Of a DNA stretch of 64,000 nucleotides, positions 8,634 to 59,932 are shown in pieces. The position numbers were made by a program, and so were the translations under genes. The stretch comes from a virus (Duplodnaviria > Heunggongvirae > Uroviricota > Caudoviricetes): the IMG/VR virus record IMGVR_UViG_3300027797_000011; one strand, given 5' to 3'. Under the pieces are notes generated by a model, which saw only the letters and a list, made by a program, of their open reading frames with translations, was not told the DNA's origin and made no database searches. Numbering within the stretch: the first letter of the stretch is position 1; every line of letters starts with the position of its first letter.

Positions 8634-8667
8634 AAAAAAGGTATAGTACAATTAATTATACTATACC
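8634..8667 (-). terminator. rho-independent terminator after the small secreted-protein gene
   Basis: Perfect 9-bp stem GGTATAGTA/TACTATACC with a 10-nt loop. In the minus sense it is followed by UUUUUU. Confidence 0.6.
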
Positions 8668-8687
8668 TTCCCCTGGGAGTCAAGTTT

Positions 8688-8891: not shown

Positions 8892-8900
8892 TTGTTTTCC

Positions 8901-13291: not shown

Positions 13292-13572
13292 TTTACACTT
13301 TCAAATATTTCTTTTTGTGATTTGTACCATTCAATCCATCCTTCGGATTTAATTGCACATTGATGATACTGTCCATAATTATCAACCACTACACTAATTA
13401 CTTCGCTTAATTTAACTGTTTCGGGTACTTCTTTTAATTCTGGGCAGGATACCAATAGTTCTTCAGGTACGCTAGGAAAGTTTCTTTTTACAGGCGCTGT
13501 TGAAGAACATCCTGTAATTAAAAATGCAAGTATGATAAAAATTACAAGGACAAATAATTTAATTAATTTCAT
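13288..13572 (-). CDS. small lipoprotein, o-spanin (Rz1-like) candidate
   Basis: Lipobox ITGCSS; Pro-rich mature region with Cys. 4-nt overlap with the upstream TM/coiled-coil gene. Confidence 0.55.
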   Translation of the reverse strand: MKLIKLFVLVIFIILAFLITGCSSTAPVKRNFPSVPEELLVSCPELKEVPETVKLSEVISVVVDNYGQYHQCAIKSEGWIEWYKSQKEIFESVK

Positions 13573-14069
13573 TTGTTGACCTCTACTGAGGTTACTGGAC
13601 TTACTATAACTGTGCCTTTTCTTAATCTTGCCGCATCATTAAGTATTATAATTGCTTCGGGGGCAACCTTGCATTCTGCATCAATTATTTTCTCAACTTC
13701 TTTTATTCTATCTTGATATACTATTTGATATTCTTTAACTGTTTTAATTTTGTTAACTATTTTAGTTTTAATTACTGTATTAGTTTGTTGACTCTTTGCT
13801 TCAGCTTCTGCGATCTTTTGTTCCATTTCTGCAACTCGAGCTCTCCATTCTGCTTCGGTGCTGTATCCACCTTTAAAATATACCCCGCCGACAAGTAATA
13901 CTATGCTTAATATTTGTAGTAATAAATGTATTGGTGCAAGTTGTGGGAACCAACGCAATAAGCGATTCAAAAGAAAAAAGGATAGTAGAAATCCCACTAC
14001 CCCAGCAATCAGCATACCATGTATTACCCAGAGTAGCAAGCTATCTGGAATAAAATGCAACATCCACAT
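13569..14069 (-). CDS. N-terminal TM plus periplasmic coiled-coil protein, i-spanin (Rz-like) candidate
   Basis: Hydrophobic N-terminus of about 65 aa, then AEWRARVAEMEQKIAEAEAKSQQ coiled coil. Immediately upstream of and overlapping the lipoprotein gene. Confidence 0.5.
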   Translation of the reverse strand: MWMLHFIPDSLLLWVIHGMLIAGVVGFLLSFFLLNRLLRWFPQLAPIHLLLQILSIVLLVGGVYFKGGYSTEAEWRARVAEMEQKIAEAEAKSQQTNTVIKTKIVNKIKTVKEYQIVYQDRIKEVEKIIDAECKVAPEAIIILNDAARLRKGTVIVSPVTSVEVNK

Positions 14070-14070: not shown

Positions 14071-14874
14071 TTACCAACCTTCCTTTTGCACTATGATTGC
14101 ATTATCTCCGTTCTTAATTAGAAACTTATTATCTAGTTTATGGATTTCGTAATTTCCTAAATATTTTTCAAGATAGACAGTTTGATTTCTACTGTTATCA
14201 TCTAATTGTATACCGCCCTGTATACTTTCTTTAATTGTATTATATTCACCTAGTGCTAGTAGTTTAAGATTTAAAGTTTCTGCATACGGTTTGTGAATTG
14301 CTAAGTTATTTGCTTCATCTATATCTGCGCTATCAATAGCACCTTGATTAAAAAACTCGGTAACTTTTTCCTGTTTTAAAGTTAACATTTTATTAGAGTA
14401 GTCAACTTCAGTTAATGGTAGTTGTTCTGAAAGAGCATGTTCGGTGGCATCGTATAAATTCATATCTTTGAAATATCTAAAATTCCACTCTTTACAATCA
14501 CACAATAATCCTACTCCGTTAAGTATTTCCATAATCTGTCTAGGTACATCTTGAGTTCTTTCAAGTTCAACAAACACGCTATACTGTCCGTCGCGTTCTT
14601 CGCCTGTACTCATATCAGCATCTAATGCAAACTGATAACCTTTTTCAATAAATTCCATTAGGTCGGTTGCAGGTAATTTTTCTTTAACTTTAAAAGACAT
14701 GACAACTACATCTTTGTCTTTGCCCATTTTACTTTTAAATTGATCAAGACTAAACGTAGGAGAAACCATATCAACGAGATCTCCAGACCTTAGACCTTCA
14801 AACAATTTAGGCTTGCTGTGCTGGTTCTTGTGTTGCGGTATCATCTGCTGGGATCTCCTGTTGAGGTTCTGCAT
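14071..14874 (-). CDS. hypothetical protein (267 aa)
   Basis: ORF track. Confidence 0.55.
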   Translation of the reverse strand: MQNLNRRSQQMIPQHKNQHSKPKLFEGLRSGDLVDMVSPTFSLDQFKSKMGKDKDVVVMSFKVKEKLPATDLMEFIEKGYQFALDADMSTGEERDGQYSVFVELERTQDVPRQIMEILNGVGLLCDCKEWNFRYFKDMNLYDATEHALSEQLPLTEVDYSNKMLTLKQEKVTEFFNQGAIDSADIDEANNLAIHKPYAETLNLKLLALGEYNTIKESIQGGIQLDDNSRNQTVYLEKYLGNYEIHKLDNKFLIKNGDNAIIVQKEGW

Positions 14875-15352
14875 CGGTCATTTGATCGTCTATGCCTTTG
14901 TATCTCATTAAGTCTGAATTGGCTGCGTTCTCTTTGTCAAGATAACCTTGGAAGATATCTTGCATTAATTTTGTTGGCATAGTAACTGTAACGATCCAAA
15001 CTGGATGTGCATCTATCTTGCCTTTCTTTGTGCCAGGACGGAAGTCGCTGGGGTCGTGTATCTTACGCGGAATTAGCACATGATCTTTTGCATAGCCTAC
15101 TTTACAACCATAATCAGTTAACCTGGCGCCGCCCATAGGATCTGGCATATTTTCATAGGGCCACATGAATTTACAAGCAACTGTATATCTGCTCATTTCT
15201 GGGCCGGTCACTAATTCGCCTTCTTCCCAATTAGGAAAAACATAGATATCCAATTCATCGAGAACTCTTTCAAAGTCTTTTAATACTTTAAAGGCGCTGT
15301 CGTTAACAGTTAGTGTTTCTAGATTTTTAATAACGTCGATTATATCGTGCAT
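14807..15352 (-). CDS. hypothetical protein (181 aa; true start may be internal)
   Basis: ORF track; overlaps the downstream ORF by 68 nt. Confidence 0.5.
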   Translation of the reverse strand: MHDIIDVIKNLETLTVNDSAFKVLKDFERVLDELDIYVFPNWEEGELVTGPEMSRYTVACKFMWPYENMPDPMGGARLTDYGCKVGYAKDHVLIPRKIHDPSDFRPGTKKGKIDAHPVWIVTVTMPTKLMQDIFQGYLDKENAANSDLMRYKGIDDQMTDAEPQQEIPADDTATQEPAQQA

Positions 15353-15475
15353 GAATAGTCTCTTAATGCATTATTTATGTTTTGATTCGCTGATACAAAA
15401 ACTCCCTATTTGAAAGCCTTTTTTCAAATTGGATGTAAATATTGTTGCAGGTCGTTCTTAAAAAAGGGGCATAAT

Positions 15476-16210
15476 TTGTCTAGAGTACGTAGAAAAGAAC
15501 GTGATCAACGTATTGATCAACGTGGCGAAAACTTAATTGAAATTAAACAATTTCAAAGAAAGAAGCCGCAAGTCCAAATAGTTCCAAGGAATCTTGCACA
15601 AGAAACCTATCTCGAACTGTTGAAAAATCCCAGAAAATACATAGTTTTTGCAATCGGGCCAGCTGGCACGGGTAAAACTATGCTGGGTGTACAGATGGCC
15701 ATTAAACTTTACCAGGAGGGAGTGATTAGCAAAATTATTATCACAAGGCCGGCTGTAAGTGTAGATGAAGAGCACGGGTTTTTACCCGGTACATTAAATC
15801 AAAAAATGGAGCCGTGGACAAGACCTATTATGGATGTATTTGAAGAATACTATCATCCAAAAGAAATTGCCGCAATGCTAGAAGATAATGTGATAGAAAT
15901 ATCGCCTCTTGCTTATATGCGTGGCCGCACTTTTAAAAATGCATTTGTTGTTGCAGACGAAATGCAAAACGCCACACCCTCACAGATGAAGATGTTATTA
16001 ACCAGACTAGGCAACAATAGTCGTATGGTAGTTACTGGAGACTTGAATCAAGCAGACCGACCTAGGGAAAACGGATTGCTAGAATTTTGCAATTTATACG
16101 GACAAGGAGGTGAGTATCGTATGATTGCCATGGCAAGGTTTGAAACAAGAGACGTTGAGCGTCACCCAGTTGTTAAGGAAGTTTTATCGATCTACAAGGA
16201 GTCCGAATAA
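15476..16210 (+). CDS. phoH: PhoH-like ATPase
   Basis: Walker A AIGPAGTGKT and the PhoH core. Probable TTG start at 15476 preceded by AAGGGG at 6-nt spacing; the track ORF extends further 5' to 15410. Confidence 0.85.
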   Translation: MSRVRRKERDQRIDQRGENLIEIKQFQRKKPQVQIVPRNLAQETYLELLKNPRKYIVFAIGPAGTGKTMLGVQMAIKLYQEGVISKIIITRPAVSVDEEHGFLPGTLNQKMEPWTRPIMDVFEEYYHPKEIAAMLEDNVIEISPLAYMRGRTFKNAFVVADEMQNATPSQMKMLLTRLGNNSRMVVTGDLNQADRPRENGLLEFCNLYGQGGEYRMIAMARFETRDVERHPVVKEVLSIYKESE

Positions 16211-22120: not shown

Positions 22121-25100
22121 TTATACCTCTCTATTGGGGAATAGCAAATATTTAGCAACAGAATTGTCCAGGGTGTTTAATACAATTAACCTATCAATAT
22201 CGAAGTTAATTGTTTTAAAATCGATGCCATATGCTTCAATTCTTCTAATTATTGTCTGGCTATTTCCGGGCAAACAATAACACAACGGCATGCATAATAT
22301 TCTTCCTAACGGGATGCCCGAAGAATCTTGTACAGTTCTCATGAATTTTGGCAATAGATATTCGTCTACATCTGCAATTGATTCTAAAGCACCCCGCATG
22401 TTATCTATACTATTTGGATATAAAGTAGTATTGTCATATTCTACCGATTCGCTAACAGTTTGTCCAGAATCGCTAATCATGTTATCGGTTAATTTAACGT
22501 ACACAACTTCGTATATTTTATTTCCGGTATTATCTAGAGCAAACGCCGATGTTAATTTACCAAAATAAAGTTTTCTTCTAGAAAAATAATTTTGCATAGC
22601 CGCTACATAATCACCTAGATTAAGTTGCTCTATTCCGTATTCAAACACAAACTCTATTTTAGATTGTGCGCCAAATTCTGGATCGTACGGTCTATATAAT
22701 AAATTAGGATCGAATATATATTGGTCAGTGATAAATGTATTAAATTGGTCTCGAACTGCACTAGACAACAATGGTTGAAATAATATTTGTGTATATCGAG
22801 ATCCAGTGTATGCCAAAACATTAATCTTAAATGTTTTAACCAGTTGGCTCGATGAATTACTGTCAGTTGCTCTAACTGTAATCGTATATGTTCCTGCCGA
22901 AGTTCCGTAAACTACTTTACCCTGAATAGCACCATCTGTAGTAAATGTTAATCCCGGAGGTAATGTTCCTGATTGTAATGCGTATGTGATTTTTAAGTAG
23001 GTATCTTCATGGACTGATTTTATGCTTAATTCTGATTGTTCGCCTGGATATACTGCACCGACAATGTCATTAGTGACCCATGTCATTTTGCTCAGTACAG
23101 CTCCTAAAATTGTTAGACTAAATGTTCTATCTCTAAATTGTGTTTGGTTCTTAAGAATATTATATTTAGAAACTCTAACTTTAAATGTGTATGTTGTACT
23201 ATACGTAGGAGAATATTGTATGCGACCGCTTATGCCGCCGGTTGTTGGATTTAATTCTAATCCGGGCGGTAATATACTGGAGTTATTTTGATTAACAATA
23301 TTCCAATCATAGGTAATTGTTCCTGCACCAGGATCGCAGTCGTATGTTTCTAATTGTATAACTTGATATGTTCCTGATCGTACTGATCCCAAATTAGCCG
23401 GAGTCATCCATTGCGGCGGCACGGGATAAGTTCCGTTAGGTATTAGTGTTGTTGGATCATTAACATCTATGGCATATTGTGCTTTAACCTTAGCAGATCC
23501 GTTGGCCGCAGTTAAGGAGAATTGATATACTTTATTAACATAACGTCCACTTACACCAAATGCCTGTTGACTTTCGTGTTCGTAAGGATTAATATCATAC
23601 CCTTCGGCATCATAGGTTCCGTTGGAACCGGCCCTATAAAATAAAGTAAGAGAATCTTGAACTTGTCCGTATAAGTGTCCTGTTTGACTAAGAGTTAGTC
23701 CAGGCGGTAATTGTCCTTCACCGTCTTCAATATAAAACACAATTGGTTTATTTGGAGCCAATACATCGTATGTTGCTGTAAATTGGAAATTAACAAACTG
23801 TCCATTGATTAGAAAGCGTTCCCCACTCGGCCCAATTGTAGGTTTTGGTCCCGGTGTTGTTATAACTGGCGCTGTTGGGCCATTAACGTCGATATAGAAT
23901 TTTCGGTCAGCTACACCATGGGTATTTTGTGCTCGAATAACAAATGTTGAATTTGTAGTTTGATATACAGATGTTGGAATTCCGGCAATGTTTCCCGACG
24001 ACGTAGTCAATGACATACCACTAGGTAATGATCCAGAAATTAGTCGGTAAGCTATATTATCTCCTGATGCATTAATAGTTCTGCTAGAATAAACTAATTC
24101 AGTGGCAGTATAGATAAACCCAGGAGGTGTGGTCCATACAGGAGTTGGAAGTGGTTGTTGTGGAGCAACAATCGGTGCAGTAAATTGTTCACTACCTTTA
24201 ATAAAGTTAATTTGATAAATTGTTCTTGAAATTAGGTCACCTGCAAGCACAACTACTTTTACAATATTGCTTCCTGTTTGAACAGTGATAGGAAATGACC
24301 AATTTTCCGGAACTATACCTAATGTATCGATGCTAACTTGAGCCTGAATATTATCAACAAACGATTTAATAGCAACAGTACTTACTGAGCTCGGAATGTT
24401 TACAACATATTGTGTTATATCTTTGTTAAATGACGGTTCTAAAAATCCTGAATTTACATGGATGTTTTTTAGATACGAATTTGCGCTACCTGTCTTTGAA
24501 AGATTTATATAATAACTTTGTTTAGTAATTAAATCTTCTGCGGTTATTGTAATAGTAGCAGTTGAATTGCCCACTACTACAGGAATATCTTGTGAAAATT
24601 CGCCCGATGTAACGCTCACACCATTAACTTTGATAGTTGCCCGTGTAGACGATTTGAACGGTTTAATCTTTATAGAAGAAACATCGTATGTAAAATTAGA
24701 ATTGTAAACAGTTACCGTTGAATTAAATGCAGGGTAATAAGATCCGGTGCTTAGTTCTATACTAGTTAGATTGGTAGAAGTGCTGAACCCTTCGGCCGCC
24801 CGCCCAATAAACACATTATAGGTAGTAACACTATCTCCCGAGTTTGCTCTAACAACAATTGGTATACGAGTAAGACCTACAGGTATTGTAATAGGATCAG
24901 AGAAAGTACCGGACGCTACTCCAACATTGTTAACTGACACGGTTGAAGTTGGATCTGTTACAAAAGGTTTAAATTGGAATGGAGTTGTGAAATTATATGG
25001 AAGGCCAATAAAATAATCATTAATATTAAAACTAAATGCAGGGTCTAATGTACCTACATTTAATATTAAATTAGTAAGAGTTGAAATATTGCTACCAACC

Positions 25101-27952
25101 CTGGTAATATATAATGTTGTTGTATTAACATAGGACGGGTCAGCCGCAGTACAGACAATACTGATAGTGTTATTACCAACCCATTCAATTTTATTTGTGA
25201 GAGAGTTAACGTAGTTATAACCTATAAGTGGCACAGTAGTAGTTGCACCTGAAAGTACTGTTGATCCGTTAATTTTTAATGTAGCTCCTACGTCATTTGC
25301 CACAACAAATATATCTGTTGATGTGGTAAAGTGCGAGGCATAGCTGGTATACGTGTTTATATCTTGAACAAATCCTTCTTGGAGAGTAGGACTCTGATAC
25401 AATATACCCGAGGTTATATCAACAACAGATAATGAATTATCGTAGTTAGCAGAACGATTAACAGTTAATCTATATGTAGAAGTAGTTATACTATCTTGAG
25501 CAAGTACTACAGTTCGTATAGTGTTAGTTCCTATAGATAAAGGAATTGAACCAGTTGATTGGCCGGACAGTACAGATATATTATTAACAGTGACAGTGGC
25601 GTTACTTTCTTCTACTGTGGGAGTAATTTTTAACGATGATATTGTATAACCAACATTTGCAGAATAACTTGTGACCAATGACTGGAACTGCGGAGTTAAT
25701 ATTGCATTTGTTACAAAATTAGAAAGACGAGAGTTAGAACTGCCCAACCTTCTAACAACCACATTGTAAATATTTTGTGTAACATTATCTGGTGCGGTAA
25801 CCGCAATAACTATATTGTTATTACCAACTAGTAGATTAATAGGTTCTGACGTGCGCCCCGGAGGTACATTTCGATCATTAACTACCACATACGAATATTC
25901 CTGAGAAGCTGTAGGAGTTACGTTTATAGTTGATATGAAGTTAGTTACAGTAGCAATATAGTTTGTTATAGTTGAACTAAACGCCGGAGCAAGTGTACCT
26001 GATGAAAGTAACAGAAAACTTAATGTTGCTGTACTGCTAAATCCTCTATTAATAGTTATTCTATAAAAGTGCGTGGTTGATTGGTCTGAAGAAATAATTC
26101 TAACATCAATTGCATTAACACCTAATTTTAAATTAATAGGTTGTGATAATATTCCTGACTGTGCCAATATTCCGTTGATGTATATAGTTCCAGCGGTATC
26201 AATCGAAGTTGCATTAGCTCTAACAGTGGTTATGGTATTGGCAAGATATGCTGTATAGAAAAATGTGTTACTATTGAAACTTGCAGTAAACGATCCTACA
26301 CTAATCGAAAGAGCTGATAATAATGAAATATTACTTAATCTAGAAACGTTAATAGTATAAGTTCGAGTAGTTAAATCCTGTGCAGTAACAACAATAGTTT
26401 CAACATTTCTTCCATAAACTAGATCTTCAAGATAGACAAGACCAGAAGTTGCAGTATTTCCGTTAATGGCAATTGAAGCAAATTGGTTTGATATTATTGG
26501 AGTTATTCCTAATTTGCTAACTGCTGTATCAACAGTTAATGAATAGGTAGTTACTGTGCTTCTAAATGCAGGAAATAATGTGCCTGCATTAAATGATAAA
26601 CTTTGTAAAGCATTGTCGGGACTTTTTACTCGGTTGATACTTATAGTATATGTACTAGTTGTTCTGTATTGAGAAGTTACCCTAATGGTACTAGTAGTGT
26701 ATCCAACGGGTAATTGTACAACTGGTGTTGCAGATCCGGATGTTACTGTTGTTGATGTATTAAACAGGATAGTAGAATATATACTTGCCGAAACAGGAGT
26801 AAATGTTAAACTAGTAGTAAGATTACCTACCGTTAATAGATAATTTGTTATAGTTGAATTAAAAGTAGGGGAAAAAGTCCCAGCACTTGCAGTTAGCGAT
26901 GATAGAGATGAGTTATTGCTATCCGCAGTTAACGCCCCATAAAAATAAGGACCAACCAAATATGGAAAGGTTGGAGTACCGTTAGAATCTTGTGTGGCAA
27001 AATATGCATAGGTGCCTAAAGGATAGTCCGGAGTTACACAATATCTTCCATTGTATAGATCTAGGGTAACGGTGTTGCTTGTTAAATAATCCCAATCTTC
27101 GACTAATGTTCCTAAATCAAACGATGCATTAATAACTTCACCTGTACCAATTGACACGGGAGTGTTAGTATATATATTGGCACCAATAATTTTTGTAACC
27201 TTAGTGGCAGTTGTGATAGAATTGCCGGTTATGGACATTCCCGGCACTATACCTGATACACTATAAACTAAGAATGATGTAGCCGAAGTTACTGTTCCGT
27301 TAACAACTAGTGTTCTTGCGGCAGGCCGATTAACTTTAGATGTAGTCCTGTAACCCGAAACCATTAGTGTTGCTGTACTAGAAGCACTTACTGGATTAGA
27401 ATATCCGTATGGACCGTAGATAGGGTATCCGTCTAACGCCCAACCTAATATTTTGCTATGACCATCTGATTCGACATATCCGGAAGTTCTATTAGAAATA
27501 GCACCCCAAGAATCGTCATTGATAAATCTTGTATCGACATAATGGTATATGCCTGAGATATTTGGGCTTCCACTGCTAGAGTCTTCGCCAAATATTTCTG
27601 CGTCAACAAAGTTTACGGTCCAGGTTGTGCCATTGCTTCCCCCAGTGCTAATTCCTGCGTTTGGGCTAAAAAATACAACACCTATAGTACTAACACCTAA
27701 TATACCATATGGTACCTTAGAGTTTGTTCCGGACGTTGGCAGATTTTTACCACCTCTATACGGCCAAGCATAGTTAAATCCTTGGGTTTGTATAGTATTG
27801 GCGTTTAGTGTATTAGGAAAGGTGCCGTAAGTAGCAAGCCCTGGTAAACTTTGTGTAACAATATTCCAGGATGTTGACCCTGTTGTATATGTAACAGTTA
27901 ATTGACCAGGTACGCCGTTACCTGAAAATGAATGAGAGGGATTAAACGACAT
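22121..27952 (-). CDS. giant adhesin / tail fibre (1943 aa) with N-terminal He_PIG-type Ig domains and at least 9 cadherin-like beta-sandwich repeats
   Basis: Repeated LSxLxxSxGTLxPxFxxxxTxYxxxV units of about 90 aa (LSSLTASAGTFSPTFNSTITNYLLTV, LQSLSFNAGTLFPAFRSTVTTYSLTV, and others). He_PIG-like YRLISGSLPSGMSLTTSSGNIAGIP. Confidence 0.8.
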   Translation of the reverse strand: MSFNPSHSFSGNGVPGQLTVTYTTGSTSWNIVTQSLPGLATYGTFPNTLNANTIQTQGFNYAWPYRGGKNLPTSGTNSKVPYGILGVSTIGVVFFSPNAGISTGGSNGTTWTVNFVDAEIFGEDSSSGSPNISGIYHYVDTRFINDDSWGAISNRTSGYVESDGHSKILGWALDGYPIYGPYGYSNPVSASSTATLMVSGYRTTSKVNRPAARTLVVNGTVTSATSFLVYSVSGIVPGMSITGNSITTATKVTKIIGANIYTNTPVSIGTGEVINASFDLGTLVEDWDYLTSNTVTLDLYNGRYCVTPDYPLGTYAYFATQDSNGTPTFPYLVGPYFYGALTADSNNSSLSSLTASAGTFSPTFNSTITNYLLTVGNLTTSLTFTPVSASIYSTILFNTSTTVTSGSATPVVQLPVGYTTSTIRVTSQYRTTSTYTISINRVKSPDNALQSLSFNAGTLFPAFRSTVTTYSLTVDTAVSKLGITPIISNQFASIAINGNTATSGLVYLEDLVYGRNVETIVVTAQDLTTRTYTINVSRLSNISLLSALSISVGSFTASFNSNTFFYTAYLANTITTVRANATSIDTAGTIYINGILAQSGILSQPINLKLGVNAIDVRIISSDQSTTHFYRITINRGFSSTATLSFLLLSSGTLAPAFSSTITNYIATVTNFISTINVTPTASQEYSYVVVNDRNVPPGRTSEPINLLVGNNNIVIAVTAPDNVTQNIYNVVVRRLGSSNSRLSNFVTNAILTPQFQSLVTSYSANVGYTISSLKITPTVEESNATVTVNNISVLSGQSTGSIPLSIGTNTIRTVVLAQDSITTSTYRLTVNRSANYDNSLSVVDITSGILYQSPTLQEGFVQDINTYTSYASHFTTSTDIFVVANDVGATLKINGSTVLSGATTTVPLIGYNYVNSLTNKIEWVGNNTISIVCTAADPSYVNTTTLYITRVGSNISTLTNLILNVGTLDPAFSFNINDYFIGLPYNFTTPFQFKPFVTDPTSTVSVNNVGVASGTFSDPITIPVGLTRIPIVVRANSGDSVTTYNVFIGRAAEGFSTSTNLTSIELSTGSYYPAFNSTVTVYNSNFTYDVSSIKIKPFKSSTRATIKVNGVSVTSGEFSQDIPVVVGNSTATITITAEDLITKQSYYINLSKTGSANSYLKNIHVNSGFLEPSFNKDITQYVVNIPSSVSTVAIKSFVDNIQAQVSIDTLGIVPENWSFPITVQTGSNIVKVVVLAGDLISRTIYQINFIKGSEQFTAPIVAPQQPLPTPVWTTPPGFIYTATELVYSSRTINASGDNIAYRLISGSLPSGMSLTTSSGNIAGIPTSVYQTTNSTFVIRAQNTHGVADRKFYIDVNGPTAPVITTPGPKPTIGPSGERFLINGQFVNFQFTATYDVLAPNKPIVFYIEDGEGQLPPGLTLSQTGHLYGQVQDSLTLFYRAGSNGTYDAEGYDINPYEHESQQAFGVSGRYVNKVYQFSLTAANGSAKVKAQYAIDVNDPTTLIPNGTYPVPPQWMTPANLGSVRSGTYQVIQLETYDCDPGAGTITYDWNIVNQNNSSILPPGLELNPTTGGISGRIQYSPTYSTTYTFKVRVSKYNILKNQTQFRDRTFSLTILGAVLSKMTWVTNDIVGAVYPGEQSELSIKSVHEDTYLKITYALQSGTLPPGLTFTTDGAIQGKVVYGTSAGTYTITVRATDSNSSSQLVKTFKINVLAYTGSRYTQILFQPLLSSAVRDQFNTFITDQYIFDPNLLYRPYDPEFGAQSKIEFVFEYGIEQLNLGDYVAAMQNYFSRRKLYFGKLTSAFALDNTGNKIYEVVYVKLTDNMISDSGQTVSESVEYDNTTLYPNSIDNMRGALESIADVDEYLLPKFMRTVQDSSGIPLGRILCMPLCYCLPGNSQTIIRRIEAYGIDFKTINFDIDRLIVLNTLDNSVAKYLLFPNREV

Positions 27953-28027: not shown

Positions 28028-28852
28028 TCAAATAGCAAACAATTCTTTTACTTCTTCTCGAACATCATCGTACGGTACAATGTTAATTGCTTGATTTTGG
28101 AAGCTATCTAAAATAGTTTTAGTAGCAGTTAATATATCAAGTCCTTTACTTTGCAGATAGTAAAGTTTATCGAGATTTAAGTGATCTGTTGTGGAACCTA
28201 AGGAAGATACAACCTCGTTGCAATCGGTGTAAATGTCAGGCCTACTGCGGCATCTACCGTTTTCTCCTATTATAAAGTTTCCGCTTTCAATGTGTGCTTC
28301 ACTACCCTCTGACCCTTTATCGAGAACAGTCATCCCTTGAAATACTGTTTGACTGTCCTTTCCGGCAACTCCAAGAATAATCTGATTACTACTAGAATCA
28401 ATATGTTGATGAATAATCTTTGTAATAATTTCAGTGTCGCCGCCCACGGTATTCATCATAAGACCATACGAATTAAATTCAGCACCTTCTTCTAAATATA
28501 CTTGGATAATGTGTTTGTTGAATTTTCCGTTTTTAACAAACATTCCAAAATTGATTCCAGCGCCTTCCGCTACATGAATATCGTACAAAAATACCTGTTG
28601 TAGTTTATGATCTGCTTCGTTAATTACAATTAAATCCAACTTACCCTCGGGCTTAACTTGAATCTTAATATGTTTTGCTAACAATTCCTTTTCTGTAGGA
28701 TTTTGCCGCAGTACCATAGTATTGCTGTGACCTTCTGCAAGCTCAACGGTGCTAGCCTCAACAACTTTAAACTCTTTACCAAAATATTTTTCTGGGGAAT
28801 ATTGCCAATCTGGGTCGCCTTTTTCAGCTTTGAGAAAACTGTGAATAGCCAT
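28028..28852 (-). CDS. sufD: SufD/SufB-family Fe-S cluster assembly protein (shortened, 274 aa)
   Basis: C-terminal CRSRPDIYTDCNEVVSSLGSTTDHLNLDKLYYLQSKGLD aligns to the SufBD signature SRPELEIYADDVKCSHGATVGxLDxxQLFYLxSRGI. Confidence 0.65.
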   Translation of the reverse strand: MAIHSFLKAEKGDPDWQYSPEKYFGKEFKVVEASTVELAEGHSNTMVLRQNPTEKELLAKHIKIQVKPEGKLDLIVINEADHKLQQVFLYDIHVAEGAGINFGMFVKNGKFNKHIIQVYLEEGAEFNSYGLMMNTVGGDTEIITKIIHQHIDSSSNQIILGVAGKDSQTVFQGMTVLDKGSEGSEAHIESGNFIIGENGRCRSRPDIYTDCNEVVSSLGSTTDHLNLDKLYYLQSKGLDILTATKTILDSFQNQAINIVPYDDVREEVKELFAI

Positions 28853-33851: not shown

Positions 33852-34799
33852 TTATCCTACGATCTGACCAAAGGGTGCCCAAGTACCTGGCGAGCCGCCC
33901 ATGGTGCAAACCCAACCAATGTAGTTACTAATCATAGGACCGCTGTTCCAAACAATATCACCTACTTGATATGATCCAACAGTTGGTGCTCGATCTCCTA
34001 CAGCAAATAGTTTATTTTGGAATTTAATATTTCCTGATACTTCAAATTCTTCACTTGGGTTTTTAACATTAACACCTACTTTGCCATAAAGATTAATCAA
34101 TGTATTTGAATTTGATTCACGACCAAGAACAATATTTCCGTTAGTACCTACAGTTAATCGAGTTTGATTGCCAACAACAATATCAACACCTTTGTTATTG
34201 AATGTTCCAATTTTAGCTCGTCCGTCTTCATTGCCTTCTAAAATAATTTGAACATTATTAGGTTCGTCGAATACTGAAAACACAGCATCGCCGTCTTCTC
34301 TTCCGATACTAAATCTTTGTCTTGTGGAAAATACAAAATCTCCGAAGTTAACATTACCTGCTACATTTAGTTTATCGAGTGTTCCTATATTTCTTAGATT
34401 ACTCTTGGTAATAGATGCACCTAATTCGGTAGCAGTTATAACAGGTTGCCCACCAATTAGATATGCTTTTTCATTGGGTAAGTCGACATGCTCTGAAAGG
34501 AAGAAACAATCAGGGTTTGTTCTATAAACAAGTTGCTTGTTTTGTATTTTATCTTGCCATAACAACCCTGTACCGGCAAGTTGTGTACCTTCAGGTGCCG
34601 CAAAAACAAGAAACTTCTTTTCATATCTAGAATCTGATATGATTTCAGTTGTGCGTACAAGTCCTACGTCAAGCACTCCGTGTATTTTAACGTTTCCACG
34701 AAGAATAACGTGATCATCATTTAAAACGAGTACTTGTTGAGTGGTGTTATCTAAAATTCCTGTTATTTCTGACATTGTCGTATTCCGTAAGTAATGCAC
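33852..34799 (-). CDS. tail-fibre-like protein (315 aa)
   Basis: Gly/Asn/Val-rich beta composition. C-terminal NYIGWVCTMGGSPGTWAPFGQIVG is similar to the end of 21249..22115. Confidence 0.55.
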   Translation of the reverse strand: MHYLRNTTMSEITGILDNTTQQVLVLNDDHVILRGNVKIHGVLDVGLVRTTEIISDSRYEKKFLVFAAPEGTQLAGTGLLWQDKIQNKQLVYRTNPDCFFLSEHVDLPNEKAYLIGGQPVITATELGASITKSNLRNIGTLDKLNVAGNVNFGDFVFSTRQRFSIGREDGDAVFSVFDEPNNVQIILEGNEDGRAKIGTFNNKGVDIVVGNQTRLTVGTNGNIVLGRESNSNTLINLYGKVGVNVKNPSEEFEVSGNIKFQNKLFAVGDRAPTVGSYQVGDIVWNSGPMISNYIGWVCTMGGSPGTWAPFGQIVG

Positions 34800-35610
34800 C
34801 GTCTCGTATCCGAGTATGGGTGTTCCTACTATTTAGCAGGATTACGGCAAGCCTACGTCCTCGGTCCTTTATAATCATAACCAAGCAACCACCAGATTTT
34901 TGTATCCAGCCTGTCTTACTAAGGCCTATACTAGTGTCTTTAACAACCAGGGAATTTGTTGTACGGAAATCAACAAAATACGATTTCTTTCGGCCGGGAA
35001 CTTGTATTCTTTTGCTGGTTTTTGTTGAAAAATTCCTAATAATGTCAAATGCGTAAGCATAGTCTATTAACTTAGCCAGATCAATAACTGTGCTAACATT
35101 CTCTTCAAACAGTCCTGTAGGATCGACAAATCTTGTATTGTGCATACCCAATGAGTCAGCAGTAGCATTCATCGCGGCCAAGGCCGATTCTTCTCCCCCA
35201 GGATAATTTTGAGCCAGGACTTTTGCGGCAACATTGTCACTGCTCATCAAGGACAACAATAATAAATCAGATCTAGTTATTTTTGTGCCATTGGGAAGTC
35301 TAGAATGAATTCCCTTAGTTTTGTTGATGGTTAAAACTTCATCTAGCTTTTGATGGGCATTTAAAACCACTACCACAGTCATTAGTTTAGTAATAGAAGC
35401 AATGCTTCTTATTTCTTGACTGTTTTTTTCTTTAAAAACTTCCCCAGTATCGAGATCTTTAACAATATAATTTGTTGCTAAGATTCCGTTCTGGGGACGT
35501 ATTGTTGATTTTTTGTTTTGTTTTGCAAACGCAGATGTGGATAACACCGCTACAATAAGTAGAGCATTAATTGCGTTTTTTAACAATTTGATCAATAAGT
35601 CCATATTCAA
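34747..35610 (-). CDS. D-alanyl-D-alanine carboxypeptidase (PBP5/6-type serine peptidase), secreted
   Basis: Signal peptide; SxxK (SIASITK), SxN (SSDN) and KTG (LSKTGW) motifs. Confidence 0.8.
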
Positions 35611-38036: not shown

Positions 38037-38837
38037 TTATTTTCCGTTGGTTTGTACTGTTGGAGTTACAACACCATTGATGACCAAGGTCTGACCTTTG
38101 AAGTTGGCAATTGCAACTGGCAGTTGACGCATGGCTTCGGCTTCGGCTTCGGCTTTGAGCAAAGGAATTGCCATTGGGTTGGCTTGCATACTTTCGTTAC
38201 GCTTTTTAGCGGTGGCTACTTTGACTTCTTCAGTCTTATATTCGTTCTTGGCTTTGACTAATTCGTTAGCACTGGCTACAACAGAGTCTGCTGGAATAAT
38301 GTTACGAATCAATACTTGACCAATAACGATAGTACCGTCCAACTTTTCTTCAGCCAAGGTGCGTACAATCTGTTCTTTGATTTCAGTTTCCATCGCCTGA
38401 CGAGCATCGCCCATTTCCAATGCTTCATACTTACGTGCGGCCTTATAGATAGCGTTACGTGCGGCATTGAAGATGTAATTGTACATCAAATAGACATCGC
38501 CATCGTGAACAGCGTGAAAGCTACGGTTCTTGGCATTGTAAATCTCAGCCACCTGTGCTTGATTGATGTTGTAGGTAACCAATGTGTCAAAGTCTTTCAT
38601 TGTGCTGTTGTCTTTGGCCAATGGAGTCATGTCTTCAACTTTGACACTAATCTCTTTGATTGGGAATGTAATAACGTTCCCAATGATAGTCTGATTAAAC
38701 GAGCCAGGTAGCAGTTCACCGGTGCTAACCTGTTTGTCAAAGCCCACACGGAGACCAACTTCTCCAGTTTCAATACGAGTACACCCTGTTGCCAGCACAG
38801 CCGCGGCAAGAACGGATAAAGTCAAAATACGTTTCAT
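38037..38837 (-). CDS. SPFH/band-7 (stomatin/prohibitin/HflC-like) lipoprotein
   Basis: Lipobox LATGC. SPFH-like core with an EAEAEAMR Ala/Glu-rich segment. 266 aa. Confidence 0.7.
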   Translation of the reverse strand: MKRILTLSVLAAAVLATGCTRIETGEVGLRVGFDKQVSTGELLPGSFNQTIIGNVITFPIKEISVKVEDMTPLAKDNSTMKDFDTLVTYNINQAQVAEIYNAKNRSFHAVHDGDVYLMYNYIFNAARNAIYKAARKYEALEMGDARQAMETEIKEQIVRTLAEEKLDGTIVIGQVLIRNIIPADSVVASANELVKAKNEYKTEEVKVATAKKRNESMQANPMAIPLLKAEAEAEAMRQLPVAIANFKGQTLVINGVVTPTVQTNGK

Positions 38838-47338: not shown

Positions 47339-47896
47339 TTAGAACTTAAAGCCAACGCTGACGTTAGTAGCATTGTACTGGCTGTCACCGCGAACTTGAT
47401 CGTAGCCTAGACCAACAAAGTAGTTCTTGGTCAGTGCATACTCAGCACCTAAACGATATGCGCGAGTAGTGTCAGCATTAACGCTGTCAGTTGCGGCACG
47501 ATAACGGTACCCTGCCTTAACACTCAAGTCTTGAGTCACGGCATACTTGACGCCCGGCTCTACTGAGTAGTAGGTATAGTTAGTTGCAGTTTTGAACTTC
47601 TCACCAACAGCACCGCGGCCATAAACGCTTAGGCCTTTTACCGCAGTTGGAACTGTGCCGGTTAAGCCACCTTCAAATCGGGTGTCGCTAAGGTTGCTAC
47701 TAGTATCAGTCTTTTGACGCAGGCTAAAATCAGCTTTGAATGTCTGATTTAGGTCTGTGCCCATTGTTACTTTAGTAGCACGAGCGTCTGCGGTACTGTC
47801 TACACCATCACGGCTACTGTATTCAACAGCGCCAAACCCACCTGCAAAGGCAGTACCTGCGGCCAACAATGCGGCCATTACGATAAACTTCTTCAT
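47339..47896 (-). CDS. outer-membrane 8-strand beta-barrel protein (OmpX/Ail/Lom or OmpW-like)
   Basis: Signal peptide MKKFIVMAALLAAGTAFA. Alternating amphipathic beta strands. C-terminal aromatic VSVGFKF. GC higher than neighbours. Confidence 0.7.
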   Translation of the reverse strand: MKKFIVMAALLAAGTAFAGGFGAVEYSSRDGVDSTADARATKVTMGTDLNQTFKADFSLRQKTDTSSNLSDTRFEGGLTGTVPTAVKGLSVYGRGAVGEKFKTATNYTYYSVEPGVKYAVTQDLSVKAGYRYRAATDSVNADTTRAYRLGAEYALTKNYFVGLGYDQVRGDSQYNATNVSVGFKF

Positions 47897-50749: not shown

Positions 50750-50773
50750 AAAAAAAAGCCCACCGAAGTGGGC
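50750..50773 (-). terminator. rho-independent terminator of the tmRNA coding piece
   Basis: Minus sense: GCCCACUUCGGUGGGC followed by U8. Confidence 0.7.
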
Positions 50774-50779
50774 TTGGTG

Positions 50780-51110
50780 GTTTCTGTTACGAGGTATTTC
50801 CTACCCTAGGCGGCTGTTAGGCGGCCAATGCGAACTGTTCGTCGTTTGCGTTTACGTGTTGTGCTTCTACGACCGAGTTACCCCAATCCTACGGGTTCTG
50901 CTTTCCCGAGCTGTCCACTCATTTACTTGTTGCCCTGTCGAAACTATGCATCCCCATCAAAAGCATACTATTTTAGTCTGAGCGCATCACATGCGACTTT
51001 TTAACTCAACGACCTAGTATGCTTATGGTGGAGATGGGGGGATTCGCACCCCCGTCCAGAACACTTTTCTCTTTGCTTCATACAGCAATAACCTACAGTA
51101 TATATTTATT
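50780..51110 (-). ncRNA. ssrA: circularly permuted two-piece tmRNA (ssrA). Acceptor piece at about 51026-51110 ending CCA; intervening hairpin 50956-51025; coding piece 50955 down to about 50780. Tag ANDEQFALAA.
   Basis: Minus sense. The 3' end GGACGGGGGUGCGAAUCCCCCCAUCUCCACCA has a T-arm and acceptor. The 5' start GGGGAUGCAUAGUUUCGACAGGG lies 70 nt downstream of the CCA in transcription order. Acceptor GGGGAUG/CAUCUCC has a G3-U70 pair. Tag frame GCA AAC GAC GAA CAG UUC GCA UUG GCC GCC UAA. The spacer forms an AAGCAUACUA/UAGUAUGCUU stem. Confidence 0.8.
51075..51092. repeat. 18-bp direct repeat copy 1 (GCTTCATACAGCAATAAC)
   Basis: Identical copy at 51567..51584; extended imperfect similarity of about 34 bp. 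Confidence 0.8.
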
Positions 51111-51446
51111 CAGAGGAGTTGTCAATAACCTGTTACGCCAAAACTCTCGGGCCGCATCGCTTTGTTCATCGCTTGGAACTAGTACTCCGTCAATCTCACT
51201 TTGCACAATGTCGTACATCACCGTGGCAACACCCGTTCGTTTGTAACCGGAATATACTTCAATGTGATGCGGATACCATTTGTTATCTCTATCATACTTG
51301 AAAACTGCTGTGGAGATTTTTTTAGACCGAACTTTGTTTTTAATTACGGATACAGTGAATATAAGACTGCATTTATTTTTGGTGTAATCGTAAACAACTT
51401 GTTCTTGAGTTTTAATCAAAGAACAGACCAACTGATAGTCTGACAT
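51093..51446 (-). CDS. small GNAT-family acetyltransferase (117 aa)
   Basis: HIEVYSGYKRTGVATVMYD matches the GNAT acetyl-CoA-binding motif A (R/Q-x-x-G-x-G/A). Confidence 0.55.
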   Translation of the reverse strand: MSDYQLVCSLIKTQEQVVYDYTKNKCSLIFTVSVIKNKVRSKKISTAVFKYDRDNKWYPHHIEVYSGYKRTGVATVMYDIVQSEIDGVLVPSDEQSDAAREFWRNRLLTTPLNKYIL

Positions 51447-52582: not shown

Positions 52583-52690
52583 AATGGTGTGGCTGGTAGG
52601 ACTTGAACCTACAAGGTGAAGCTAGGCTTCAAACCTATCCCTGAAACCTTTGGCGGGTTTTTCGGAGCTATGCCAATTTCGCTTACAGCC
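52583..52690 (-). tRNA. atypical 108-nt tRNA-like gene with perfect acceptor and T-arm but about 33 extra nucleotides in the anticodon/variable region
   Basis: Acceptor GUGGCUG/CAGCCAC, discriminator A, CCA. T-arm GUAGG-UUCAAGU-CCUAC. D-arm AGC-GAAAUUGGCAUA-GCU. Internal hairpins AAACC-CGCCAAA-GGUUU and GAAGC-CUA-GCUUC. No shorter cloverleaf can be closed. Confidence 0.45.
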
Positions 52691-52781
52691 ACAGTTAACT
52701 TTAACATGTTATTGTATTTAAGTCAAGTAATTGTGAGTAAATTAACTACCGTTATAAATAGCGTTATGAGAGAGTAATAAC

Positions 52782-53411
52782 ATGGTCATGTGCAATCTTC
52801 AACCTGAGTTTGATTCAAACTGGATTGATTTAATCAAATTAGATCCGGTACATCCAACGGACGAAAAAAAGAATTTAATGAGAAGATTGGGAAATGATAG
52901 ACTCATTTATACTCTTATCATGGACGGCAAACCTTGTGCCATGCTTCAGGTGGCGCTCAAAAATAAATGCCCCACTACTGCAAATGAACTTTGGAATAAA
53001 CGGGAAGATGTAGATTTTAACTATGCTGTGTTTTATTCCGTATTCCGGTTACCCGGTGCAGACAATGCCAAGGGGTCTGTAAAAGAATTAATATTTGAGG
53101 CCGCCGCAGACCTACAAAAAAGATATGTAGGAATTTCAAAGTTTATTACATTAAGCCCAATACCTAGTCTTCGTAAAAACTTTAAAAAGAATCCCGGTAT
53201 TGAAGAAGTACAAGAATACATATTCAATAAAAAAGACCCAGTAGCACGATTCCATATGATGAATGGAGCCTTACCCTGGGCTGTTAGACCAAAAGCTGAT
53301 TCTAGCAAATTACGTAAAGATGAAAGTTGGGGTTGGATGGTCAGTTATGATTATACACCACTACTAGACCATCCAACCATTAAACTACATCCTATAGTAG
53401 AAATAGCCTAA
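52782..53411 (+). CDS. malonyl-CoA decarboxylase-like catalytic domain (GNAT-fold), stand-alone 209 aa
   Basis: ITLSPIPSL (MCD TLSPIPGF motif with catalytic Ser) and ARFHMMNGALPW (MCD FHLGNGA motif with catalytic His). Confidence 0.55.
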   Translation: MVMCNLQPEFDSNWIDLIKLDPVHPTDEKKNLMRRLGNDRLIYTLIMDGKPCAMLQVALKNKCPTTANELWNKREDVDFNYAVFYSVFRLPGADNAKGSVKELIFEAAADLQKRYVGISKFITLSPIPSLRKNFKKNPGIEEVQEYIFNKKDPVARFHMMNGALPWAVRPKADSSKLRKDESWGWMVSYDYTPLLDHPTIKLHPIVEIA

Positions 53412-54017
53412 TTACATTGTAGGACCGTTTCCGTTCCTAAAGTCAATACTACCGCCTTCTTCCTTAATACGCCCTTTAACATCTTCAAACAAGATAGGCG
53501 CAAAGTCCGGAGTTTGTTCTACGCAAACGCAATGATACCGTACATCGTTCTCATCGCTGTATAAAACCTCTCCAGTTCTAGCATCAACACCACGAGCCTT
53601 CTTCACACGATTTGCATGAGTATGTCCGTGAATGTTAGTGCCAAATCGCCCCATTGAATCTGAGTGTAACGGAATATGGCTTAAGATCATTCCGTCCATA
53701 ACATGATATGCACGTAATTCTCTAAAGTATATCCTGTACTCGTCATCGCGGAAGATGTCGTGGTTGCCGCGAATCAAAACCTTGTCGCCGTTTAAACGGG
53801 CTAAGGTACTTAAAGCCTTACGGTTAATAACTACGTCACCTAAATGGTAGACCTTGTCAGTGGGTTTTACCCTTTCGTTCCACGCCTTGACCATTGCTTC
53901 GTCCATTTCCTCAGCAGAGTCCCATGGACGTAATTTTGTAACACCATCGTTACGAGTGAAGCGGCAGACGCCGGTATGTCCGAAATGCGTGTCGCTAACT
54001 AAAAATACACTAGGCAT
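53412..54017 (-). CDS. calcineurin-like metallophosphoesterase / Ser-Thr phosphatase-like
   Basis: DTHFGH, GDVV, GNHD and GHTH motifs. 201 aa. Confidence 0.7.
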   Translation of the reverse strand: MPSVFLVSDTHFGHTGVCRFTRNDGVTKLRPWDSAEEMDEAMVKAWNERVKPTDKVYHLGDVVINRKALSTLARLNGDKVLIRGNHDIFRDDEYRIYFRELRAYHVMDGMILSHIPLHSDSMGRFGTNIHGHTHANRVKKARGVDARTGEVLYSDENDVRYHCVCVEQTPDFAPILFEDVKGRIKEEGGSIDFRNGNGPTM

Positions 54018-54255
54018 CTTGCCCTCCTTTCTTTAATATGTCTCTTTTACAATTTTAAATTCTGTTGTCGGATACTTTGCTTTAAACTCTTCAGTCTTGA
54101 CGTAATCGTTATAGTGCTTTGCATCAAAAAACATACGATGGAAAACTGTTTTGTGATCCAAGGTAGTTACTGTGAGATAAACTGATTTTGCTTTGCCAGC
54201 CATTATATGCCTTTCACTGTTTAATGTAATATTATAACATCAGACACAGAGTCTG

Positions 54256-54840
54256 TCAAGGTATTAATTTTCTACGTTCTCGTCTCTCAGCCGCTAATGT
54301 AAAAACTTTCTCATTGTCATTGGTCCAGTCTATTGCTTTCTTAGGAATGATCAAACCTGACTCGAGTGTCACCCCATTAATAGAGTGCGGCTCATTTTCA
54401 TCATAGGTCCATCCTAGGTGTTTCATCATGCGATGCTTGACTAACAGGTTGGGACTACGAAAAACTTCAGTATCATCAAACCCCATCATGACACCAAGCT
54501 CGCAAACTGCACCGCTACGACATACACCTGCTACACAATGCACAATGACGTTCATCCTATTCTCTAATGCATGTTGCAATAATCGAACAAGCTCGGCGGC
54601 CTGCTCGTGACTGCAACGCATAGATTCTTCAAGTGCAAAATCCTTTTCTTCAATGTCTAAAAATTCAAACTGATGAACTTCTTTGAACGTATATTTTGGT
54701 ACAGGAAAATCACCAGGCGGATCCACAATCTGAATCAGCATGGCATTAACTCCGGGGTCAAAATGAAACCCTTTTTTGATGTCGCTTAGTGCAACGTTTT
54801 GAATCCATGGCATAATTGCCTCCTTAACATTCAATGTCAA
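54256..54840 (-). CDS. dual-specificity / tyrosine protein phosphatase (CX5R)
   Basis: Active-site signature VHCVAGVCRSGAV. 194 aa. Confidence 0.75.
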   Translation of the reverse strand: MTLNVKEAIMPWIQNVALSDIKKGFHFDPGVNAMLIQIVDPPGDFPVPKYTFKEVHQFEFLDIEEKDFALEESMRCSHEQAAELVRLLQHALENRMNVIVHCVAGVCRSGAVCELGVMMGFDDTEVFRSPNLLVKHRMMKHLGWTYDENEPHSINGVTLESGLIIPKKAIDWTNDNEKVFTLAAERRERRKLIP

Positions 54841-59563: not shown

Positions 59564-59836
59564 TTAACCAGTACGGTGAATGATGTGATATCCAAATTGT
59601 GTTTGTACAGGTCCGCTAATATGCCCGATTGGCAGGCTAAAGGTTGCATCTTCAAAAGGCTTAACCATCATACCTGTACTAAACTGTCCTAGATCGCCAC
59701 CGTTCTGTCCGCTTGGGCACTTACTAAAACTACGGGCCACTGCCGCAAAATCTTCCCCAGCAGAGATTTTCTCTTTTAAATCTACTGCCTCTGCCAATGT
59801 GGGCACTAAAATATGACTTGCTCTAACTTGACTCAT
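59564..59836 (-). CDS. parvulin-type peptidyl-prolyl isomerase (PpiC-like)
   Basis: ASHILV...GGDLGQF...GYHIIHR. Start trimmed to the internal Met to clear tRNA-Pro. Confidence 0.65.
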   Translation of the reverse strand: MSQVRASHILVPTLAEAVDLKEKISAGEDFAAVARSFSKCPSGQNGGDLGQFSTGMMVKPFEDATFSLPIGHISGPVQTQFGYHIIHRTG

Positions 59837-59855
59837 TTTATTTCCTTTATTAATA

Positions 59856-59932
59856 TGGTCGGTGTGACACGATTCGAACATGCGACCACTGCGTCCCAAA
59901 CGCAGAGCTCTACCAAGCTGAGCTACACACCG
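59856..59932 (-). tRNA. tRNA-Pro (anticodon GGG)
   Basis: Acceptor CGGUGUG/CACACCG; anticodon arm CUGCG-UUUGGGA-CGCAG; T-loop UUCGAAU; CCA encoded. Confidence 0.8.

Follow-up and report, generated by a model that had tools for sequence, protein, structure and literature searches.

The gene at positions 52,782 to 53,411 of a 64,000-nucleotide stretch of viral DNA (IMG/VR record IMGVR_UViG_3300027797_000011; the whole stretch is called the window below) encodes a protein that is almost certainly a member of the malonyl-CoA decarboxylase (MCD) family with an intact active site. It is a short phage form of a known kind of enzyme rather than a system of a new kind, and among uncultured T4-related phages from aquatic habitats it is widespread. 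On balance, we favor the reading that the protein is an active minimal MCD, made from an autonomous late cassette, that would drain host malonyl-CoA, stop type II fatty acid and lipid synthesis, and return acetyl-CoA and CoA.

52,782-53,411, plus strand: coding sequence of the single-domain MCD homolog, 209 amino acids (aa), with active-site equivalents F84, S125, R156, H158, D173, and Y191 (from the open reading frame, Pfam, the Protein Data Bank, and a structural model)

The open reading frame (ORF) starts with ATG and was found exactly where a sequence-only reading of the window had placed a 209-aa ORF with two catalytic motifs on the strand opposite its neighbors. The motifs, ITLSPIPSL and ARFHMMNGA, are residues 122 to 130 and 155 to 163 of the translation. 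The gene is surrounded by minus-strand genes only, and its stop codon abuts that of a convergent gene for a 201-aa metallophosphoesterase (53,412-54,017, minus strand). The sequence-only reading had counted three plus-strand genes in the 64 kb. Such genes are indeed rare, but only two are credible, PhoH (15,410-16,210) and the MCD gene; the remaining plus-strand ORFs are shadow ORFs or small, and the first 4 kb holds only low-complexity shadow ORFs. The GC content of the MCD gene is 37.6%, versus 39.0% for the window, and no second MCD copy was found in the window.

The protein matched Pfam PF05292 (MCD catalytic domain) with an E value of 2.7e-21 and 76.8 bits against a cutoff of 23.2. An MCD-like catalytic domain had been proposed from the sequence alone, with this family match named as the check to make, and the proposal was strongly supported by Pfam, by a sequence search of the Protein Data Bank (PDB), and by a family profile. 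In the PDB search with phmmer, bacterial and human MCDs were matched with E values of 1.6e-10 to 1e-5. With the profile, built from 77 family members, the PDB yielded its five distinct MCD sequences (E values of 4.7e-27 to 4.1e-23) and nothing beyond MCDs; CurA was not reached at an E value of ≤1. PHROGs and NCBIfam offered no usable family for the 209-aa protein. An AlphaFold2 model computed from the family alignment had a pLDDT of 91.3 and a pTM of 0.86. When this model was searched with Foldseek, ranks 1 to 17 were all MCD chains (4KS9, 4KSF, 4F0X, 2YGW, and 4KSA), with E values of about 1e-11 and TM scores of 0.66 to 0.72 over the query. Next came the GNAT-like decarboxylases CurA (2REF/2REE; E = 8e-8 for 2REF), GphF (6MFC), and SxtA (7UCI), followed by ordinary GNAT acetyltransferases. 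A BFVD fold search returned generic viral GNATs as weak matches and no MCD-like structure. The MCD assignment itself is not new, since the automated JGI pipeline already labels many relatives "malonyl-CoA decarboxylase."

The catalytic dyad of human MCD is Ser329/His423, and the S329A substitution causes a 110-fold loss of kcat; Phe288 sits under the leaving carboxylate, and Tyr456 holds the catalytic His (PMC3701320). HMMER alignments to human MCD paired S125 with Ser329, H158 with His423, F84 with Phe288, and Y191 with Tyr456, and an offset of 35 was common to Ser, His, and Tyr in the MCD alignments. The Ser and His that the sequence-only reading had picked out in the two motifs thus fall at homologous positions in the sequence alignments. 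Two further positions concern CoA binding and reaction type. The residue two before the His contacts the CoA 3′-phosphate (Arg387 in both RpMCD and CurA), and an MCD-specific Asp (RpMCD Asp404) replaces CurA Arg404, a residue suggested for S-acetyl transfer (PMC3701320). The phage protein aligned R156 with RpMCD Arg387 and carries the MCD-type Asp, D173, at the CurA Arg404 position. None of 129 short homologs departs from F84, S125, H158, D173, or Y191, and all but one of them (128 of 129) have R or K at position 156. In the secondary structure of the model, F84 lies in the β4-equivalent strand and S125 just past the β5-equivalent strand; the MCD active site has been located at β4 and just after β5 (PMC3701320).

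Two parts of canonical MCDs are missing from the phage protein. Homology begins only at residue 16 to 19, so the helical domain at the N terminus, about 180 residues of the roughly 450-aa MCD, is absent, as the sequence-only reading had stated. The β5-β6 helical insert, which that reading had not mentioned, is absent as well; alignments with solved MCDs are broken in two at its position. The distance from the catalytic Ser to the His is 33 residues here and 32 to 39 in short forms (median, 33), with a median of 51 and a maximum of 97 in full-length forms. Published values are 94 for human MCD, 77 to 94 in the structures numbered in PMC3701320, and 34 for the CurA GNAT_L domain (Thr355 to His389; PMC3701320). 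The first 15 residues form a family-specific strand and helix start in which F10 and W14 are invariant. The N-domain of MCDs mediates oligomerization, the active site receives little from other subunits, and the β5-β6 insert, which blocks GNAT-type dimerization, is poorly conserved (PMC3701320). For these reasons, loss of the N-domain and insert should not abolish catalysis. The short form may dimerize like ordinary GNATs.

The gene is under purifying selection. The ratio of nonsynonymous to synonymous substitution rates (dN/dS) was 0.095 at a dS of 0.33 in comparison with the closest relative (locus L087) and 0.09 to 0.22 in more distant comparisons. An identical protein was found in six independent metagenome samples, with the same gene layout in each. 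A word-indexed search gave 80 clusters of 140 to 223 aa, all with PF05292; the shortest seem to be fragments, and the others are 183 to 223 aa. Several of these clusters are on contigs of 170 to 355 kb. More generally, the short form occurs commonly on viral contigs, and phages of 200 to 377 kb are the source of many of these; 35 loci with it were present in IMG/VR. More than 120 full-length short homologs have constant length and architecture. An exhaustive profile search yielded 2,495 relatives at 50% clustering, of which about 14 are short full-coverage forms and the others mostly MCDs of 400 to 580 aa. Among 50,697 deposited phage genomes, no match was found by megablast of the locus or tblastn of the 209-aa protein. 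The best cellular relatives, sought in 80 species-representative genomes, are 27 to 35% identical and come mostly from marine Rhodobacteraceae, SAR86, and SAR116. Nearly all of them are ORFs of 390 to 460 aa or longer in which the match is preceded by about 120 to 200 residues; in two actinobacterial loci the ORF has only about 250 to 300 aa. The ORFs on viral contigs are 183 to 231 aa and have no extra N-terminal residues.

The carrier is a T4-related jumbo phage of about 370 kb. Proteins of the same 90% cluster were found on contigs of up to 376,813 bp, and the T4-type clamp loader of the window is closest to that of Pseudomonas jumbo phage PA5oct (54%), followed by Atu_ph07, Phosso, and SCTP-2. 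With this clamp loader, a holin, an endolysin, a spanin, virion proteins, 18 tRNAs, and one transfer-messenger RNA (tmRNA), the window is clearly phage DNA.

The MCD gene has two signals directly upstream of it.

52,753-52,760, plus strand: TATAAATA, a promoter-like element with a T4-late-type core, 21 nt from the ATG
52,768-52,774, plus strand: Shine-Dalgarno-like GAGAGAG, 7 nt before the start codon; relatives have a purine-rich tract at the same place

TATAAATA is the T4 late-promoter consensus. The copy upstream of the MCD gene is the only one on either strand of the window, where 7.8 ± 3.2 are expected. ATAAATA is depleted threefold in the window (9 observed versus 30.2 ± 5.7 expected), and all nine sites (4,513, 4,972, 9,465, 15,372, 29,658, 41,638, 51,103, 52,754, and 62,692) share the orientation of the local genes. 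At six of them a start codon follows at a distance of 18 to 29 nt, the genes including holin-like, virion structural, and radical-SAM genes; at a seventh, the distance to the start of a weak virion-structural match (4,542-4,967) is only 4 nt. A lysis cassette and a virion gene lie inside the auxiliary-gene region of the window.

8,901-9,443, minus strand: holin-like protein
11,884-12,507, minus strand: endolysin
13,569-14,069, minus strand: Rz-like spanin
14,807-15,352, minus strand: virion structural protein

ATAAATA is probably the late-promoter core of this phage. Because the TATAAATA core precedes holin-like and virion-structural genes, and given the T4-like replication genes, the MCD gene was read as a late gene. 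A promoter scan found no convincing plus-strand sigma-70 promoter for the MCD gene. On the minus strand, the scan gave the following promoter.

54,231-54,259, minus strand: consensus sigma-70 promoter, TTGACA-17-TATAAT with an upstream TG (12/12), upstream of a 56-aa ORF and the metallophosphoesterase gene

This promoter, which would drive the two toward the 3′ end of the MCD gene, implies that the convergent neighbors belong to a different, early temporal class, and temporal separation of the MCD gene from these neighbors would make their convergent, abutting arrangement workable.

The upstream element is kept whatever the orientation or neighbors of the MCD gene. [T/G]ATAAATA lies 28 to 35 nt before the ATG in all loci of clade A, to which the window belongs, and in clades B and C the element is extended to (A/T)ATAAATACGCATAT(A/T)A. 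Within 521 kb of MCD-containing loci, the extended element has 13 distinct contexts, every one of them upstream of MCD. Across these contexts the proteins are 35 to 98% identical (median, 49%), the 18-nt element is 78 to 100% identical (median, 94%), and the flanks are unconserved. The Bacteroidota copies of the gene lack the extended element. A blind IMG/VR scan for the 16-mer gave 120 sites among the matches listed, and at 48 of these 120 (43 distinct proteins) an ORF matching the short-MCD profile follows at 20 to 45 nt. Of the other listed sites, some repeat a chance occurrence inside the coding sequence of one conserved gene, some are chance matches in AT-rich DNA, and a few belong to other genes, among them a baseplate hub and a ribonucleotide reductase gene. 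The extended motif ATAAATACGCATATAA as a mark exclusive to MCD genes was therefore rejected; exclusivity is true in the 521 kb of loci but only in part across IMG/VR. Since other genes also follow listed sites, the element is a promoter-type signal whose tie to the cassette is strong but not exclusive. The recognition of the MCD gene as an autonomous cassette of promoter, ribosome-binding site (RBS), and gene is new here.

Most of the 48 ORFs that follow the 16-mer are only 144 to 148 aa, smaller than the other short forms, and keep DDPVRP, AVFY, TLSP, RFH, NGA, and NYLY. In these ultra-minimal forms the Phe, Ser, His, and Tyr persist, Ser and His have just 11 residues between them, and the Pfam MCD threshold is passed (39.6 bits). 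The ultra-minimal forms occur in IMG/VR loci L140, L152, L158, L169, and others and were found only through the shared upstream 16-mer. A single cultured-phage homolog of the ultra-minimal form was present among the 50,697 deposited phage records.

L252, 3,920-4,405: Mosig_00145, "hypothetical protein," 161 aa, of Pelagibacter myophage Mosig EXVC030M (Kyanoviridae)

The neighbors of Mosig_00145 are thyX, gp59-like and gp33-like genes (the latter for late-transcription accessory function), and a tmRNA, and the equivalent of Phe84 is Ala.

Short homologs in Bacteroidota (P0067, P0072, and P0074; 37 to 39% identity) lie inside polysaccharide-utilization loci (PULs) and bear on the substrate.

L122, 1-11,700, and L124, 1-11,900: Bacteroidota PULs with a MatB-like ligase and a short MCD (gene content)

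The genes run from SusD through two SASA esterases, GH2, and an MFS transporter to a 480-aa AMP-binding ligase, which is followed by the short MCD (191 to 194 aa) and LacI; proteins with type IX secretion system (T9SS) tails are encoded nearby. In about 50 of 80 proteobacterial loci, the gene directly after full-length MCD encodes a protein to which the 480-aa ligase has about 40% identity along its whole length, and full-length MCD with an adjacent ligase is the classical matA-matB arrangement. Because a MatB-like CoA ligase adjoins the Bacteroidota copies, the short form appears to serve the canonical malonate-to-malonyl-CoA-to-acetyl-CoA module in cells, and malonyl-CoA is supported as its substrate. 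On the substrate of the short forms, this pairing is the strongest evidence obtained. The gene content suggests that the Bacteroidota loci salvage malonate released from malonylated glycans.

Taken from sequence, decarboxylase activity of the phage protein on malonyl-CoA or a close analogue is likely. By homology with human and bacterial MCDs, malonyl-CoA would lie along strand β4, with its 3′-phosphate contacted by Arg156. Ser125 and His158 would polarize the thioester carbonyl, with Tyr191 keeping His158 in place; the carboxylate, positioned over Phe84, would depart as CO2, and the enolate would be reprotonated, by Ser125 if the published model applies, to give acetyl-CoA. An enzyme driven late from TATAAATA would collapse the host malonyl-CoA pool and so cut off the supply of malonyl-ACP (acyl carrier protein) and with it type II fatty acid and lipid synthesis, returning carbon and CoA to acetyl-CoA in late infection. 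A drain on malonyl-CoA that might throttle lipid synthesis or feed acetyl-CoA had been put forward from the sequence alone, and the MatB-like neighbor of the cellular short homologs makes it more plausible. That shutdown of lipid synthesis is the effect for which the gene was selected is a tentative proposal, to which we give less than even weight.

Several points weigh against this account. The main problem is a futile cycle: as long as host acetyl-CoA carboxylase (ACC) is active, an MCD would waste ATP. No MatB-type ligase, ACP, FabD, or ACC-related gene was found in the scanned proteins of the window or adjoining MCD in 41 viral loci, which leaves the pathway context in phages silent. No substrate complex exists even for full-length MCDs. 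In a rough neighbor-joining tree with no support values, the short forms are one clade with the Bacteroidota copies nested among the viral ones. As for timing, no gp55 or gp33 homolog was recognized among the scanned proteins of the 64-kb window (of about 370 kb), and the late-promoter assignment draws on the T4 consensus and local co-occurrence. The transcriptome paper on PA5oct, the nearest cultured relative, reports sigma-70-type promoters only, and published support for TATAAATA as a late promoter in PA5oct was not found. Late expression of the MCD gene stands at about even odds.

Loci were also inspected for other partners. No phosphopantetheinyl transferase (PPTase) recurs as an MCD partner in the window or the 41 viral loci, and no AMP-binding family was found among the Pfam-scanned window proteins. 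In locus L112 only, a weak AMP-binding match (27%) lies about 6 kb from MCD on the opposite strand.

The strongest competing explanation is a decarboxylase for another malonyl-type thioester, whether malonyl-ACP (giving acetyl-ACP, as with CurA-type GNAT-like loading domains or, in function, MadA/MadB), methylmalonyl-CoA, or a substrate tethered to a phage carrier protein. The domain size and the Ser-to-His spacing of the short forms fit CurA GNAT_L rather than typical MCDs, the closest structural matches after the MCDs are the decarboxylase domains of CurA, GphF, and SxtA, and the substrate-recognition residues of MCDs are not experimentally defined. In one viral locus (L005), an ACP gene lies about 1 kb from MCD; no ACP was found among the window genes scanned, and the cellular short homologs are paired with a CoA ligase, not an ACP. 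The family profile reaches MCDs only, and the protein has the MCD-type Asp173 instead of CurA Arg404 and Arg/Lys156 at the CoA 3′-phosphate-binding position. We consider this explanation unlikely, yet the most serious of the alternatives. A GNAT-fold acyltransferase descended from MCD (acylating, e.g., a host or phage protein, a nucleotide, or a sugar), or a noncatalytic acyl-CoA-binding or regulatory protein of the same descent, is improbable. The fold is GNAT, many of the GNATs that phages encode modify host proteins or DNA, the model weakly matches generic viral GNATs, and sugar-nucleotide and envelope enzymes are abundant around the gene. However, the residues that distinguish decarboxylase from transferase are all invariant (His for the GNAT general-acid Tyr, its Ser partner, and Asp at the CurA Arg404 position), and a purely binding role is disfavored because the dyad is invariant. 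Finally, a decaying remnant or miscalled ORF, i.e., a nonfunctional fragment of a host MCD, might be suspected from a length less than half that of canonical MCD, the strand opposite to the neighbors, and the lack of annotated partner genes, but it is effectively refuted by the dN/dS, the constant length of the short homologs, the compact and confident AlphaFold2 fold, the genome-like GC content, the conserved promoter and RBS, and a slot kept across lineages.

With an MCD as the preferred identity, the protein can be set beside systems already known. The cyanophage genes for CP12 and talC are phage auxiliary metabolic genes (AMGs) that act as metabolic brakes. The likeness is that of a host-derived gene in an aquatic T4-like phage diverting carbon and reducing power from host biosynthesis; the phage MCD would act at another node, malonyl-CoA and lipid synthesis. 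With MCD/MatA (EC 4.1.1.9; 4F0X, 2YGW, 4KSA, 4KSF, and 4KS9), the phage protein shares homology over the whole catalytic domain, a GNAT-type fold, the Ser-His dyad, and the Phe, Tyr, and Asp, and some short homologs retain the classical pairing with a MatB-like malonyl-CoA synthetase. Unlike MCD/MatA, the phage form has no N-domain or insert, has its own N-terminal 15 residues and a late-type promoter, and is without MatB or MatC. The loading decarboxylases of the polyketide synthases (PKS) and nonribosomal peptide synthetases (NRPS) CurA, GphF, and SxtA resemble it in size (about 200 aa), in Ser/Thr-to-His spacing, and in cofactor-free malonyl-thioester chemistry, the last predicted for the phage protein by homology. 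They differ in that the phage protein is free-standing, has Asp for Arg404, gives no profile match to them, and is not part of a megasynthase with an ACP. MadA/MadB (YiiD) of Proteobacteria are likewise small malonyl-thioester decarboxylases at the entry to type II fatty acid synthesis (FAS), but they have a hot-dog fold, act on malonyl-ACP, and promote FAS initiation, and so are analogous and not homologous to the phage form (PMC8666670).

If the enzyme is active, large aquatic phages directly manipulate malonyl-CoA, the committed precursor of fatty acid, phospholipid, and lipid A synthesis. In the literature searched, including AMG lists and jumbo-phage reviews, there was no mention of a phage or viral MCD, and no AMG at the malonyl-CoA node was found. 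To our knowledge, the malonyl-CoA/lipid synthesis node is not a known phage target. Activity would also define the minimal catalytic unit of MCD, a medically interesting enzyme, with the oligomerization domain and insert dispensable, and would make the short form an evolutionary bridge between MCDs and the GNAT-like decarboxylases of PKS. The Bacteroidota copies suggest a malonate salvage branch within PULs. The conserved upstream element gives a sequence by which to find the cassette and to study how late genes are regulated in uncultured jumbo phages, and Pelagibacter phage Mosig offers a cultured system with a distant relative. A broader scenario, which we regard as rather doubtful, is that aquatic T4-related phages ranging in size from pelagiphages (140 kb) to jumbo phages (370 kb) have in common a mobile cassette with a late promoter and progressively miniaturized MCDs (about 210, 185, and 145 aa) that would collapse malonyl-CoA late and halt membrane lipid and lipopolysaccharide (LPS) synthesis in step with lysis, or would be packaged in the virion for the next host. 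If it is true, the first committed intermediate of fatty acid synthesis is a general, previously unrecognized target of phage takeover, and the 145-aa form is the smallest enzyme of its class known.

The genes next to MCD in the window recur in other phages.

53,412-54,017, minus strand: metallophosphoesterase, 201 aa, convergent with the MCD gene (Pfam Metallophos/Metallophos_2)
54,256-54,840, minus strand: DSP/PTP-type phosphatase, 194 aa, with an HCVAGVCRSG motif (Pfam Tc-R-P/DSPc/PTP-SAK)

The metallophosphoesterase adjoins the MCD gene or lies within four genes of it in 20 viral loci; it is 72 to 92% identical in most of these and about 32% identical in L105, L107, and L108. As a conserved neighbor, it marks the slot occupied by the MCD cassette. 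Since the family is present in more than 2,000 phage genomes without MCD, no functional link between the two is drawn. The DSP/PTP phosphatase lies within four genes of MCD in 18 viral loci. In comparison with the window, the metallophosphoesterase, DSP phosphatase, and MCD are 88, 77, and 41% identical in L098 to L103 and 80, 68, and 42% identical in L004. In these loci the MCD gene (clade B, 183 to 186 aa) is codirectional with its neighbors, and it is inverted in clade A of the window (209 to 212 aa). The slot is thus conserved, and its MCD occupant may have diverged unusually fast or been replaced. The neighbors in clade C loci are different and include radical SAM, ClpP, Endonuclease_NS, and nucleotidyltransferase genes. 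In L098 to L103 the gene right after the short MCD (at about 8,600-9,300, plus strand) encodes 224 aa and matches PF09825 BPL_N (E = 1.4e-12), the GATase-like N-terminal domain of biotin-protein ligase; acetyl-CoA carboxylase, which makes malonyl-CoA, is a biotin enzyme. This neighbor may bear on the futile-cycle problem and is offered only as a lead; no BPL_N homolog was found in the window.

Other features of the window were recorded along the way. A 1,943-aa protein (22,121-27,952, minus strand) has a YHYH domain, nine cadherin-like β-sandwich repeats, and He_PIG Ig domains and is probably a large surface, fiber, or adhesin protein. Numerous host-like auxiliary genes on the minus strand (4,983-7,247, 7,244-7,750, 28,028-28,852, 34,747-35,610, 38,037-38,837, 47,339-47,896, and 59,564-59,899) include those for a ClpB/ClpA-type ATPase, peptide deformylase, SufBD, and a PBP5-type d-Ala-d-Ala carboxypeptidase, as well as SPFH/Band 7, outer membrane protein (OMP) β-barrel, and parvulin-type peptidyl-prolyl isomerase (PPIase) proteins. 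The host appears to be Gram negative, because the window encodes an OMP β-barrel. The tmRNA (50,753-51,139, minus strand) scores as the two-piece (permuted) betaproteobacterial type, with 117.9 bits for RF01850 beta_tmRNA (gathering threshold, 84) and 119.1 bits for RF04321 tmRNA_permuted, and its tag peptide is ANDEQFALAA; the tmRNA type is a hint that the host is betaproteobacterial. A tRNA-like element (52,588-52,692, minus strand) lies between tRNA-Arg(TCG) and the MCD promoter. Its acceptor stem is 7 bp long, its T-arm is good, and CCA is encoded. It has about 44 nt in place of the D-arm and an anticodon loop of UUUGAAG, was not called by ARAGORN, and scores 29.3 bits, at the Rfam tRNA threshold; it could be an intron-containing or degenerate tRNA.

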